A stretch of DNA of 16,099 nt, taken from a virus (taxonomy: Duplodnaviria > Heunggongvirae > Uroviricota > Caudoviricetes). The DNA lies in the IMG/VR virus record IMGVR_UViG_2563366820_000001, positions 1-16,099 of that record; one strand, given 5' to 3'. Under the pieces are notes generated by a model. It was not told the origin of the DNA. It saw nothing but the letters and a program-made list of their open reading frames with translations, and did no database searches. Every line of letters begins with the position of its first letter. Positions within the stretch are counted from its first letter, which is position 1. The position numbers and the translations under genes were made by a program. Shown piece by piece: positions 1,611 through 6,659 of this stretch.

Positions 1611-2825
1611 GTGAAACTCAATGCCCGTCAAATAGACACTGCCAAGCCAAAAGAGAAGGCTTACAAGCTGGCTGATGGTGGTGGTCTGTATCTCTTGGTA
1701 AAACCTAGTGGAGGAAAATATTGGCGCTTCAAGTATCGTGTAGCTGGTAAAGAGAAGCTGTTAGCACTAGGTGTGTATCCTGAAGTTACCTTGGCTGATG
1801 CTCGTGCAAAACGTGAAGAAGCTAAAAGGGGTATCGCTGGGGGTATCGATCCGATGGAAGCGAAACGAGAGGAAAAGATTGCCCGGGAAACGCAGTTAAA
1901 CAACACCTTCAAAGATATTGCCCTTGAGTGGCACAGCAGCAAATTAAAAAAATGGTCTGCTGGTTATGCTTCAGACATCCTCGAAGCCTTCAACAAAGAT
2001 GTGTTCCCTTACATTGGCAAAAAACCAATCGCCGAAATCAAACCACTTGAACTGCTGAATGTGCTGCGGCGCATCGAGGGGCGCGGTGCTACCGAAAAAG
2101 CCAAAAAAGTGAGGCAGCGATGCGGGGAAGTTTTCCGCTATGCAATTGTCACTGGACGTGCTGAGTATAACCCTGCACCGGATCTCACCAGCGCGATGCA
2201 AGGTCATGAATCTAATCATTATCCTTTCCTCACAGCCAAAGAATTACCTGATTTTTTCAAGGCATTGTCCAGTTACTCAGGAAGTGCATTGGTTGTTATG
2301 GCGGCTCGTCTACTGATTATCACCGGTTTGCGGACTGGCGAACTGCGCGGTGCATTATGGGATGAAATCGATCTCAACAAGGCTATCTGGGAGATACCAG
2401 CTTCACGGATGAAAATGCGTCGCCCTCATGTGGTGCCTTTGTCTGAGCAGGCTCTTTCGCTTATTGGGCAGATTAAAGAACTAACTGGCAATTATCCGCT
2501 TATGTTTCCCGGCCGTAATGATCCAAGGAAAACAATGAGCGAGGCTAGCATAAACCAAGTATTTAAACGCATCGGCTATAACGGAAAGGTTACTGGTCAT
2601 GGCTTCCGGCACACTATGAGCACCATTTTGCATGAGCAGGGCTATAACACCGCGTGGATAGAGACACAGCTTGCGCACGTCGATAAAAACTCAATTCGTG
2701 GCACATACAACCATGCGCAATATCTGGATGGGCGGCGGGAAATGCTTCAGTGGTACGCTGATTATATGGATTCGCTCGAGCATGGCGGAAATGTGGTGCA
2801 TGGTGAGTTCGGAAAATGCGGGTGA
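1611..2825 (+). CDS. int: P4-family tyrosine site-specific integrase
   Basis: 404-aa ORF with GTG start preceded by GGAGG (1597..1601); N-terminus MKLNARQIDTAKPKEKAYKLADGGGLYLLVKP typical of P4-like integrases; C-terminal catalytic region with conserved R (ITGLRTGELR), HGFRHT and Y (SIRGTYNHAQY); location directly downstream of a tRNA. Confidence 0.9.
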   Translation: MKLNARQIDTAKPKEKAYKLADGGGLYLLVKPSGGKYWRFKYRVAGKEKLLALGVYPEVTLADARAKREEAKRGIAGGIDPMEAKREEKIARETQLNNTFKDIALEWHSSKLKKWSAGYASDILEAFNKDVFPYIGKKPIAEIKPLELLNVLRRIEGRGATEKAKKVRQRCGEVFRYAIVTGRAEYNPAPDLTSAMQGHESNHYPFLTAKELPDFFKALSSYSGSALVVMAARLLIITGLRTGELRGALWDEIDLNKAIWEIPASRMKMRRPHVVPLSEQALSLIGQIKELTGNYPLMFPGRNDPRKTMSEASINQVFKRIGYNGKVTGHGFRHTMSTILHEQGYNTAWIETQLAHVDKNSIRGTYNHAQYLDGRREMLQWYADYMDSLEHGGNVVHGEFGKCG

Positions 2826-2896
2826 CTGGTTGAGTATACAGTAGTAGACTTTGAGCGATTAAGAAAAGGCTGTGTCTAGGGTCGCTCCCGAAAATC

Positions 2897-2951
2897 CGCA
2901 CACCTCTGCGGACTGGCACAGCCACTACGGTAGAGGGCGCAGAGGTGTGCG
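2897..2951 (+). promoter_or_regulatory. Perfect 14-bp inverted repeat CGCACACCTCTGCG (2897..2910) / CGCAGAGGTGTGCG (2938..2951), 27-nt spacer; second arm contains the AGAGGTG Shine-Dalgarno of the downstream ORF
   Basis: Reverse-complement identity verified base by base; the ATG at 2953 follows arm 2 directly. Confidence 0.5.
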
Positions 2952-2952
2952 T

Positions 2953-3723
2953 ATGGTTGATATTCATGCCGAATTAAATGAATATAAAAAAGAGTTTATT
3001 TATTTACGTGATTTTCTTGATGATGTATTTAAAGTTGTTGATGCTAATATTTCAGAAGTCATTACCTGGATACTCAAGAGAATAAATACAGTAAATCCAG
3101 GTATTACCCTGTACACAGTAAATTCATTAAATGAGGTGGAACTTTATTCTTCGGATCCGTTTGAGTGGAGATCTGATTTTAACTTTCTTTATGCAAAACT
3201 GGATACGGTTAGGGAGCGTGGTTGTTTACCTTGTGAGAGGGATGAGAGTGGTTTTCTGGTATCTGGTTATTGGGAAGATGCCGAATTTGAGGCAATGGGA
3301 TTCAGAAGAAATGAAATTTTCGAAATTTTCCCAGAAATCCTTGACGGGTTAATGAATCTGGAATGTGCTGACTCTTCTGAAAATAACGAGGCGCAAGGAA
3401 GCAATATTGAACATAAAGAGTTGCGTACAGATGATGATTTTTTATCCCGAATTGCAATGCTGGAAAAAGAAAATGAATCGTTAAGGGAGCGGGTAAATCA
3501 GTTAGAAAAGGAGCGCCCGATTTTGCTAAGGGCGTATCGTGATGATGACCCATTGTATCTGGCTATCGATATTAGAAACAGAGAGTGGGCCAATTACGAC
3601 CCAGAGAATGATCGCGCAACCAGGGGAAACCAGGGCGCGATTACTACTGAACTTGAAAAACGAGGTTTTACCTCCCGACAGGCCGCATCTATTGAGCTTG
3701 TCGCCTGTCCTATCAAACGATGA
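2953..3723 (+). CDS. Hypothetical protein (256 aa from ATG 2953; ORF track allows GTG at 2872), AT-rich N-terminal half, coiled-coil-like segment IAMLEKENESLRERVNQLEKER
   Basis: Long ORF with SD AGAGGTG 6 nt upstream of ATG 2953; codon composition markedly more AT-rich than the flanking int and alpA; no family recognised. Confidence 0.55.
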   Translation: MVDIHAELNEYKKEFIYLRDFLDDVFKVVDANISEVITWILKRINTVNPGITLYTVNSLNEVELYSSDPFEWRSDFNFLYAKLDTVRERGCLPCERDESGFLVSGYWEDAEFEAMGFRRNEIFEIFPEILDGLMNLECADSSENNEAQGSNIEHKELRTDDDFLSRIAMLEKENESLRERVNQLEKERPILLRAYRDDDPLYLAIDIRNREWANYDPENDRATRGNQGAITTELEKRGFTSRQAASIELVACPIKR

Positions 3724-3762
3724 AGCCTTACCCTAGTGATATCTCATGTTTTGTTCGCGTCT

Positions 3763-3841
3763 CACCCTAAGGGTAATCAGACCTCACCCTTAGGGTATTT
3801 TTGTATGCTTTCCCATCAATTTTACTATTACCCTTAGGGTA
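3763..3841 (+). promoter_or_regulatory. Three copies of a palindromic motif ACCCT(A/T)AGGGTA (3763..3776, 3785..3797, 3830..3841) upstream of alpA; candidate operator array
   Basis: Motifs read directly; ACCCTAAGGGT and ACCCTTAGGGT are reverse complements of each other. Confidence 0.5.
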
Positions 3842-3943
3842 AAAATATTCCCGATTACCATTAGGCATGAGGGTATGAAAATATTCGTTATTTCTGTGCC
3901 ATGATTACCTCGTCAAATTGAGTAGACGTTATGAGGTAAATAT

Positions 3944-4141
3944 ATGTCAAATACGCTTATTCGTTTAACGGAAGTTCAGCGTAGAACTGGATATAGCAAG
4001 GCATGGATTTATCGCCTTATGGGGCAAGGTAAATTTCCTGCATCAGTTAAAATTGGCTCGCGAGCGATTGCTTTCGTTGAGAGTGAAATTGACGAGTGGA
4101 TTAATCAGCGTATTGCGGAATCACGCGGAACAGCTACCTGA
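3944..4141 (+). CDS. alpA: AlpA-family phage transcriptional regulator / excisionase-like HTH protein
   Basis: 65-aa product MSNTLIRLTEVQRRTGYSKAWIYRLMGQGKFPASVKIGSRAIAFVESEIDEWINQR matches the AlpA pattern (L+EV...G.S+..IY.L...G.FP..VK.G.R...F.E.EI.EWI). Confidence 0.8.
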   Translation: MSNTLIRLTEVQRRTGYSKAWIYRLMGQGKFPASVKIGSRAIAFVESEIDEWINQRIAESRGTAT

Positions 4142-4219
4142 TTAAATGGCTACGGGGCCAGAAGTCCCAGCTATCCACCAGCAAATAAAAAGTAACTTAA
4201 TTCGATAGCAGGAGTTTTT

Positions 4220-5020
4220 ATGAAACTGCGAAAAACGCCCGTACAGGGGCAGGGATTCGTTCGGCCTGAAAACCAGAGCCAACAAAATTTCGGCGAAATT
4301 ATCCCGGTTATTTCCGGCGTTATTGGCGGGCGTGAAACCAATATTGTTAGCGCCAGAGCGTTGCATAAGGCGCTGGGTGTGAAGCGTGATTTCACAACCT
4401 GGATTAAAGGACGCATTGATGAGTACGGATTTAAAAAGGGCGTGGATTTTGAATTCGTAGAAAATTTGACCTCCCCCAATCCGGTGAGCGCAAAATCTCG
4501 CCAACGTGTAGAGCACGACTACCTGAGCACTATCAACATGGCGAAAGAACTGGCGATGGTCGAACGCACCGAACAGGGCCGCGCCGTTCGTCAGTACTTC
4601 ATCAAATGCGAGGAAGAGCTACACAAGGTTGCGCCTGTACGTTCCGCAGCGTTACGCCGGGAACTGAAAGCCCGTATCACAGTTGCCAGCTACTTTAAGC
4701 CAATGTGTGCCGCGCTGGAGGCGTACCGGGCTGAACTGGGTAAAAACACGCTCCAGCACCATTACACCACGGAAGCCAATATGCTGGCGCGTATCGTGCT
4801 GGGTGGCATGACTGCAAAACAGTGGGCGCAGGCGAACGGCATTACAGGCGAACCACGCGACCACATGAGCACGTTGCAGCTTGAGCACCTTTCTTACCTT
4901 GAGCAGAGCAATATCACGCTGATTGAGTTAGGCCAGGACTACCACCAGCGGAAGGCTGAATTAATTCGTCTTTCGCAGCGTTGGTTAGCCCGTCGCATGG
5001 AGGAAAACAGCCATGTGTAA
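4220..5020 (+). CDS. Phage antirepressor-like protein (AntA/AntB-type N-terminal domain)
   Basis: 266-aa ORF with AGGAG SD; segment ARALHKALGVKRDFTTWIKGRIDEYGFKKGVDFEF resembles the AntA/AntB antirepressor domain signature; called by eye, not by search. Confidence 0.55.
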   Translation: MKLRKTPVQGQGFVRPENQSQQNFGEIIPVISGVIGGRETNIVSARALHKALGVKRDFTTWIKGRIDEYGFKKGVDFEFVENLTSPNPVSAKSRQRVEHDYLSTINMAKELAMVERTEQGRAVRQYFIKCEEELHKVAPVRSAALRRELKARITVASYFKPMCAALEAYRAELGKNTLQHHYTTEANMLARIVLGGMTAKQWAQANGITGEPRDHMSTLQLEHLSYLEQSNITLIELGQDYHQRKAELIRLSQRWLARRMEENSHV

Positions 5021-6344: not shown

Positions 6345-6659
6345 ATGAAAAAGAAAAATTCTGGCTTTACTGCCAGCGGTCTCTCTCGGCCTGAAATTCG
6401 CCCCGGCGATATTTTCCGGGATAAATACGGCAGTCAGATAACGGTAAAAACGGTGAGTGCTTATCGTGTGACCTATATCCGCGAAGGGTATGCGCATCCC
6501 TGCGTGTCGTCACATATGCGCTTTGAAAGGGAATTCATCCTTGTAAGTAAAGCGCCACCAGCAGAATTAAGCGACATCGACAAAATCATGAGCGTCACGG
6601 GCGCGGAACGCATCAGGACAGTACGTGAAATTATTCGTGAGCGGGGAGGTAAGAAGTGA
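6345..6659 (+). CDS. Hypothetical protein (104 aa)
   Basis: ORF with ATG 4 nt after the previous stop; stop overlaps the primase GTG start (GTGA). Confidence 0.5.
   Translation: MKKKNSGFTASGLSRPEIRPGDIFRDKYGSQITVKTVSAYRVTYIREGYAHPCVSSHMRFEREFILVSKAPPAELSDIDKIMSVTGAERIRTVREIIRERGGKK

Follow-up and report, generated by a model that had tools for sequence, protein, structure and literature searches.

An int-alpA RNA as a candidate translational gate before the variable cargo gene of PICI-like phage satellites

In the SAM-II, preQ1-II and preQ1-III riboswitches, a structured domain is combined with a pseudoknot that sequesters the Shine-Dalgarno (SD) sequence, a loop or tail pairing with the SD in mutually exclusive pairings. 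Kissing loops are known from the guanidine-II (mini-ykkC) riboswitch and from the HIV-1 DIS, in which they convert into an extended duplex. The leaders of hok/sok-family toxin mRNAs are metastable, and alternative long-range pairings set the accessibility of their SD.

The int-alpA motif has reportedly been in Rfam since a comparative screen of 2017. Its entry, RF02996, is presumably one of the candidate structured RNAs of Weinberg et al. 2017, which are said to number 224. To our knowledge, public descriptions of int-alpA leave open whether it acts in cis or in trans. The main text of Weinberg et al. 2017 does not discuss int-alpA. Neither a publication assigning a function to the motif nor an experimental paper on it was found in the literature searched, where the term "RF02996" had no matches and "int-alpA" led to one unrelated paper in which the motif was not assayed.

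The window analysed here is a 16,099-nt stretch of viral DNA whose end falls inside a genomic island. The gene layout resembles that of Gram-negative PICI-type phage satellites (PMC6092414), and the island, known here from its genes, is accordingly termed PICI-like. AlpA is described as an activator in PICI papers, and those searched mention no RNA element. The main features of the island are:

1369-1444, + strand: tRNA-Thr (CGU), the insertion site of the island, next to proA (ARAGORN and Rfam; the same site is annotated in E. coli G5)
1611-2825, + strand: int, a P4-type tyrosine integrase (Pfam Arm-DNA-bind_3, Phage_int_M and Phage_integrase)
2953-3723, + strand: cargo ORF, 256 aa, coiled-coil (ORF list; a RefSeq homologue is annotated from the same ATG)
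3944-4141, + strand: alpA (Pfam Phage_AlpA / HTH_17)
6656-8407: P4/D5-family primase, downstream of alpA

Other island genes comprise an AntA-domain gene, an Icd-like gene, a DUF4222 gene, a protease-like ORF and a small-terminase/HTH-like ORF.

Just before the cargo ORF, the arms CGCACACCTCTGCG (2897-2910) and CGCAGAGGTGTGCG (2938-2951) can both be read in the sequence as perfect reverse complements with a 27-nt spacer, as the original prediction had it, and at 94% identity the repeat lengthens to 17 nt (2894-2910 / 2938-2954). For spacers of 3-60 nt and the size and composition of the window, the number of perfect 14-bp inverted repeats expected by chance is 0.003 analytically and 0.01 by shuffling (3 of 300 shuffles contained any); the window contains two. 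The arm sequence is single-copy within the window and not a dispersed repeat. Of the 5,426 complete E. coli genomes searched, 184 carry related DNA, O104:H4 2011C-3493 among them, and the median number of places per genome is one. As RNA, the segment 2885-2965 reaches -34.7 kcal/mol (z = -3.6, none of 200 shuffles being as stable). The gap between the end of arm 2 and the ATG at 2953 is 1 nt, not the 2 nt first given; the SD core GAGGUG (2942-2947) lies 5 nt from the AUG.

The second perfect 14-bp repeat of the window, ACCCTAAGGGTAAT / ATTACCCTTAGGGT (3764-3777 / 3827-3840, 49-nt spacer), whose chance improbability equals that of the first, lies inside the 220-nt gap from the cargo stop codon to alpA, where it is possibly a hairpin or an operator in the promoter region of alpA.

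A full-length match to Rfam int-alpA (RF02996) covers 2869-2936 on the + strand (cmscan 48.4 bits, gathering score 35.8, E 1.5e-07, model positions 1-71), beginning 44 nt past the int stop codon. Its parts, together with the elements that follow it, are:

2869-2876, + strand: 5' strand of P1, pairing with 2915-2922 (Rfam alignment; 98% paired, 7 of 8 pairs with compensatory changes)
2879-2889, + strand: P2 hairpin GGG-UCGCU-CCC (Rfam alignment and helix statistics)
2895-2912, + strand: P3 hairpin UCCGC(A)-CACCUC-(U)GCGGA, its inner part being arm 1 (stem 98% paired, 4 of 5 pairs with compensatory changes)
2900-2907, + strand: P3 loop ACACCUCU, an anti-SD mimic in which CACCUC equals the 16S rRNA 3' end; it co-varies with box 1 and the SD
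2915-2922, + strand: 3' strand of P1 (Rfam alignment and helix statistics)
2932-2936, + strand: box 1, AGAGG, the putative decoy; partner of the 3' part of the P3 loop, CCUCU (2903-2907), and last conserved positions of the Rfam model
2937-2952, + strand: P4 hairpin GCGCA-GAGGUG-UGCGU, its inner part being arm 2; outside the Rfam model and ending at the AUG
2942-2947, + strand: Shine-Dalgarno GAGGUG in the P4 loop, pairing with the 5' part of the P3 loop, CACCUC (2901-2906)

The conserved int-alpA junction residues are present (CTAG at 2876-2879, GAAAA at 2890-2894, CTG at 2913-2915 and the AGGG box at 2934-2937), and the P1/P2/P3 three-way junction can form, every pair in the window allele being standard. 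The motif lies between int and alpA, with the cargo ORF between motif and alpA. By every feature tested, namely covariance-model score, junction, conserved residues and location, the element is an int-alpA member. The inverted repeat is two adjacent hairpins, P3 of the int-alpA junction and P4 beyond the Rfam model, and it is a perfect 14-bp repeat because P3 and P4 here have the same inner stem (CGCA/UGCG) and complementary 6-nt loops. The single static 14-bp stem first proposed is thus not the conserved structure: arm 1 belongs to P3, arm 2 forms a hairpin of its own, and relatives keep 5-7 nt of complementarity. Box 1, a second partner of the P3 loop that competes with the SD, had been absent from that proposal.

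Relatives were gathered in four ways, none of which constrained the P3 loop or the sequence after P1: from 80 loci around integrase relatives in GTDB genomes, by two pattern scans of IMG/VR viral contigs, by one pattern scan of metagenome contigs, and from E. coli RefSeq matches. The pattern scans fixed parts of P2/P3 and of the junction. Filtering of the 89 and 59 instances collected left ~145 unique ones, among which 41 different P3 loops occur, and all 13 relatives tested, representing all loop classes, exceed the Rfam threshold (36-72 bits). Nearly all instances have the same order of three-way junction, short linker, purine box 1, P4 and start codon, P4 in relatives being a 3-6 bp hairpin with an SD-like loop (box 2). 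For 73 of the 86 instances, the first base of a start-like codon falls from 2 nt inside to 2 nt past the P4 3' end. A long ORF directly follows the motif in 87 of 89; the downstream boxes are absent in two instances, and two have no ORF call.

Two motif copies, in L211 (about 4703) and L179 (- strand, about 2180), have an intact three-way junction without box 1, P4 or SD and are probably decayed or rearranged. Other Rfam RNAs are found on the same satellite-like contigs, namely Proteo-phage-1 in L118 (713-795, - strand, 84 bits) and the C4 antisense RNA in L168 (11874-11963, - strand, 74 bits).

Loop pairings were assessed in alignments built in-house, anchored on the CC and GG runs, N-padded, and gap-free after MAFFT. 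In the 50-sequence alignment, P1-P3 together with the loop:box 1 helix show 91.5% pairing, compared with 73.8% for the shuffled and 38-47% for the slid controls, and their covariation of 0.443 (0.125 shuffled) was equalled by none of 500 shuffles, a count that kinship among the sequences keeps from being a probability. P3, loop:SD and P4 jointly, with P4 partly defined by its own ability to pair in the alignment, are 94.4% paired against 66.1% shuffled, with a covariation of 0.558 against 0.124 that likewise, as a count and not a probability, was equalled by none of 500 shuffles. When P4 was placed by a fixed anchor, with no selection for pairing, it was 81% paired against 18-54% slid; its positions each show many pair types. 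At single columns, pair 42-85 of the loop:box 1 helix reads CG29/AU5/GC5/UA5, and the loop:SD pairs 15-53 and 14-54 read AU24/CG13/UA1 and CG24/AU5/UA3. The effect of kinship is mitigated by the slid controls and by a permutation test scoring contiguous helices with one representative per loop sequence. Across the 41 loops, the best site complementary to an instance's own loop scored 5.99 against 4.77 +/- 0.20 permuted, and a second, non-overlapping site scored 4.96 against 3.49 +/- 0.21; in each case 0 of 2000 permutations did as well. A class-by-class matrix of duplex energies gives specificity at group level only (3 of 20000 permutations), the matrix being noisy because G+C-rich loops bind anything G-rich. 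Examples of loops with their partners are:

Loop CACCUCU: box 1 AGAGG, SD GAGGUG
Loop CACCCCU: box 1 AGGGG, SD GGGGUG
Loop UUCCCUG: box 1 CAGGG, SD GGGAA
Loop AAACCCUA: box 1 UAGGG, SD AGGGU
Loop CCUUCA: UGAAGG twice
Loop CCUUCG: CGAAGG
Loop CCUUGA: box 1 UCAAGG, SD CAAGG
Loop AAGCCUUA: box 1 UAAGGC, SD AAGGC
Loop UACUUCCCGA: box 1 UCGGGAA, SD GGAAG
Loop GCCCCUUCA: box 1 UGAAGG, SD AAGGGGGC

The 3' part of the loop is, in most classes, the partner of box 1, and the 5' part that of the SD; because these offset parts are both matched, the two boxes are not mere duplicates of each other or generic SDs. The 16S rRNA is invariant and therefore cannot explain the co-variation of the loop. Complementarity to the SD is weak in some members (one mismatch in L063, poor in L067). 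Where substitutions keep pairing through G.U (CGCCUC with GAGGUG, AGGGGG with CCUCU, and the E. coli alleles CAUCUC and AUACCUC), they place the constraint on the + strand RNA and not on duplex DNA. Family membership, the helices and the co-variation of the loop with both partners are thereby established, and the suggestion that RNA pairing occludes the ribosome-binding site of the 2953 ORF gains support, since compensatory changes in the 41 loop variants preserve the complementarity between the centre of arm 1 and the SD.

Sigma-70 and terminator scans of 2500-4300 returned no promoter above threshold and no + strand terminator. A putative promoter, recognised through comparison with L003 and L007, lies at the end of int:

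2822-2850, + strand: promoter-like element GTGACT (2822-2827), 17 nt, TAGACT (2845-2850), with 8 of 12 matches and below the tool threshold

The homologous TAGACA-17-TAGACT is called promoter-like in L003 (2958-2986) and in L007 (3725-3753), a locus that has no motif. In relatives it is conserved and sits 18-25 nt upstream of P1, and in motif-less loci it is directly upstream of the cargo SD. The transcript is thus predicted to start near 2857, upstream of both arms, which would place both in the mRNA. Four loci (L007, L010, L031 and L049, about 3700-3800) combine closely related integrases (67-93% identity) and the same TAGAC element with the absence of the int-alpA motif; their cargo has an ordinary SD and starts about 25 nt past the last repeat. 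The RNA motif can thus be dispensed with, and its distribution suggests an optional 5'-UTR module.

The TAGAC repeats between the int stop codon and the motif (2822-2860 in the window) are phased, with the consensus ATAGACAGT..17..TAGACT..GTAGACGA, and could equally be binding sites for AlpA or another protein. Inverted repeats of GGTAGA/GTAGAC units downstream of the primase (8510-8530 / 8607-8627 and 9612-9627 / 9644-9659) have the TAGAC core in common with those beside int and may be replication-origin iterons.

The gene after the motif is never alpA in the sample. Over 87 instances the slot is filled by proteins of at least 29 unrelated families, 66-368 aa long, and leaders of different classes can precede members of one family. 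In 61 of 81 loci the next gene on that strand after the cargo is AlpA-like, its median distance from the cargo stop codon being 191 nt. The only domains recognised in cargo proteins are DUF6387 and an FkbM-like methyltransferase domain, and none of 10 cargo proteins tested matched in PADLOC. For the protein of the window, which the original prediction supposed to be toxic or conditionally expressed, PADLOC and NCBIfam gave nothing, Pfam only sub-threshold bZIP matches, the PDB no significant match (best E 0.2), and PHROGs one weak match to a function-unknown family. So variable a slot argues against a metabolite riboswitch tied to gene function; the motif is in keeping with a generic control cassette, or with a sensor that responds to a general signal or one derived from phage.

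The cargo proteins themselves are mosaics (window 2953-3723; L014, L120, L173, L189, L155 and L172). A C-terminal module of ~70 aa (DDPL..AI..RN.EW...VACPIKR) recurs in proteins whose N-terminal parts are unrelated, and further modules at either end recombine in the same way; 82 cargo proteins fall into 24 C-terminal and 32 N-terminal clusters. Four mosaic proteins screened for defence systems gave no matches.

Taken together, the sequence comparisons make it probable that P3 and P4 constitute a cis-acting translational gate (a switch or an occluder) within the leader at the 5' end of the cargo mRNA. The P3 loop, CACCUC, would act as a copy of the anti-SD of 16S rRNA, and the P4 loop would present the SD directly before the AUG. 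With the loop paired to box 1, the SD would be free on the P4 loop; with the loop paired to the SD, binding of the 30S subunit would be blocked and translation presumably lowered. The latter pairing would run from loop to loop and, in the window allele, might extend to a 14-bp duplex. The two loop pairings would have to interconvert, and the balance between them could shift with the order of co-transcriptional folding, with a protein or ligand at the conserved junction, or with temperature. Across the family the duplex energies are -7.2 +/- 0.8 kcal/mol for loop:box 1 and -8.6 +/- 1.7 kcal/mol for loop:SD, and such near iso-energetic duplexes are what a switch needs. In the window allele the loop could form 8-14 pairs with the SD and 5 with box 1, which predicts a bias towards OFF. 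Such a gate would serve whatever gene occupies the variable slot between int and alpA.

It is tempting to go further, and tentatively to regard int-alpA as a translational switch with two states that, across Proteobacteria, controls the hypervariable first cargo slot in PICI-like satellites. Its loop would toggle between the decoy box (on) and the true SD (off), with the balance set by a signal such as a protein of the helper phage or of the satellite, a small molecule, or timing during transcription, and the window would hold an extreme allele whose OFF pairing can be extended to 14 bp. This fuller model is possible, and we would put it forward as a conjecture.

Taken by itself, the window allele invites a simpler account, in which a static 14-bp mRNA hairpin constitutively buries the SD and the three-way junction is irrelevant. 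The minimum-free-energy fold of 2860-2975 indeed includes the 14-bp stem, which alone is worth -27.9 kcal/mol, and the best pseudoknot-free folds reach -41.8 kcal/mol with it against -39.2 without. By nearest-neighbour energies, nonetheless, the three-way junction with P4 (-30.6 kcal/mol) comes near the stem with P2 (-31.8) even before the loop-loop contact, which lies outside these pseudoknot-free figures and would add some -7 to -11 kcal/mol to the junction state. With energies so close, both states are plausible; the junction may not be the dominant fold in the window allele, since pseudoknot-free folding favours the long stem, whereas transcription order favours the junction, arm 1 being transcribed and able to fold into P1-P3 before arm 2 exists. 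Allelic differences bear on both structures as well. Most E. coli alleles with the same cargo gene have CGTACACCTCGACG as arm 1 and CGCTGAGGTGTGCG as arm 2, so that as RNA 13 of the 14 arm positions can pair, two of them as G.U. Four substitutions in the window make all 14 positions Watson-Crick, and although all four raise the complementarity between the arms, the same four also strengthen P3 (U-A to C-G at 2899/2908) and P4 (A2941-U2948). P1 and P3 are, moreover, strongly supported by co-variation. Over 86 unique instances, the P3 and P4 regions are perfectly complementary for at most 5-6 nt in 75 and for 7-8 nt in six; the figure stays at or below 8 nt in 85, and the window alone reaches 14 nt. 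The conserved loop-to-loop complementarity is 5-7 nt only, and its 14-bp version is unique to the window allele. A static hairpin is possible for the window allele but an unlikely account of the element.

Less likely again is a structural or trans-acting role for int-alpA, whether as an sRNA or as part of the 3' end of the int mRNA, in which the loop pairs only with box 1, as an internal pseudoknot, and the match to the SD is without regulatory consequence. The Rfam type ("Gene; sRNA"), a model that ends at box 1, the well-supported box 1 pairing and a motif start so close to the int stop codon all agree with it. It leaves unexplained why SD-flank positions that pairing with 16S rRNA does not account for co-vary with the 5' part of the loop, and it sits poorly with the lack of a terminator after the motif, with an ORF start within a few nt of P4 in nearly all loci, and with the motif-less loci, where the same integrase and promoter-like element are followed directly by the cargo SD. 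The original prediction had also allowed for a DNA-level role, and the repeat could be imagined as a dyad operator for AlpA or another regulator, or as the intrinsic terminator of int, given its perfect dyad symmetry, its place between int and the next gene, and the nearby TAGAC repeats that suggest protein-binding sites. Such a role is highly improbable: the symmetry is not conserved, spanning just 5-6 nt in 75 of 86 relatives, substitutions keep G.U pairing on the + strand rather than DNA symmetry, and the window has no further copy of the arm. As for termination, the stem is followed by UAUGGUUGAUAUUC, with no T-run in the DNA and hence no U-tract, and no terminator was called. A cis-acting gate that works on the RNA is the reading retained here.

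Two further candidates were set aside. An RNA thermometer of the ROSE or fourU type finds no support in the sequence, neither motif being present and the SD partner CACCUC pairing in a G-C-rich manner. A leader mini-ORF beginning at a GUG within the SD was rejected, its frame and length not being conserved and other loop classes having no start codon there. In the window this GUG opens a 10-codon out-of-frame mini-ORF at 2945-2977 (GTG TGC GTA TGG TTG ATA TTC ATG CCG AAT TAA), and an in-frame GTG stands at 2947; since neither is conserved in other loop classes, both are probably incidental.

For int-alpA, the analysis supplies a concrete candidate mechanism, an anti-SD loop with two competing partners, and a place, the leader of a slot in which phage satellites swap at least 29 unrelated and mostly uncharacterised families. 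Should the mechanism hold, it would account for the expression of interchangeable satellite cargo under a single standard control cassette, and the motif would amount to a portable, sequence-programmable translational gate. In annotation practice, a perfect inverted repeat at a ribosome-binding site beside an integrase should first be checked for int-alpA.

Compared with the described systems, the element agrees with RF02996 in its full-length match above threshold, in the three-way junction with CUAG, GAAAA and CUG, in the pyrimidine-rich P3 loop, in the 3' AGGG box and in the int-alpA location. The Rfam model differs in stopping at box 1, without P4, the SD pairing or the position directly before a variable cargo ORF, and the 14-bp complementarity of P3 and P4 is peculiar to the window allele within the family. 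The P4/SD extension, the proposed choice of the loop between two partners and the association with a variable cargo slot appear to be undocumented. Like SAM-II, preQ1-II and preQ1-III, the motif combines a conserved structured domain with mutually exclusive pairings that involve the SD; unlike in those riboswitches, the downstream genes are functionally unrelated and form no one coherent pathway, which points towards a signal that is general, phage-derived or kinetic. With guanidine-II and the HIV-1 DIS it shares two adjacent hairpins with complementary loops, and since the stems are also identical in the window (CGCA/UGCG), a kissing complex could isomerise to the 14-bp duplex as in the DIS; it differs from the ACGR tetraloops of guanidine-II in having fully complementary loops of 6-8 nt that would meet within one RNA molecule. 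The proposed gate resembles hok/sok in that alternative pairings would decide access to the SD, in that the order of folding during transcription would matter, and in its mobile-element setting, although it has no antisense RNA, no leader ORF and no sequence similarity to that family.
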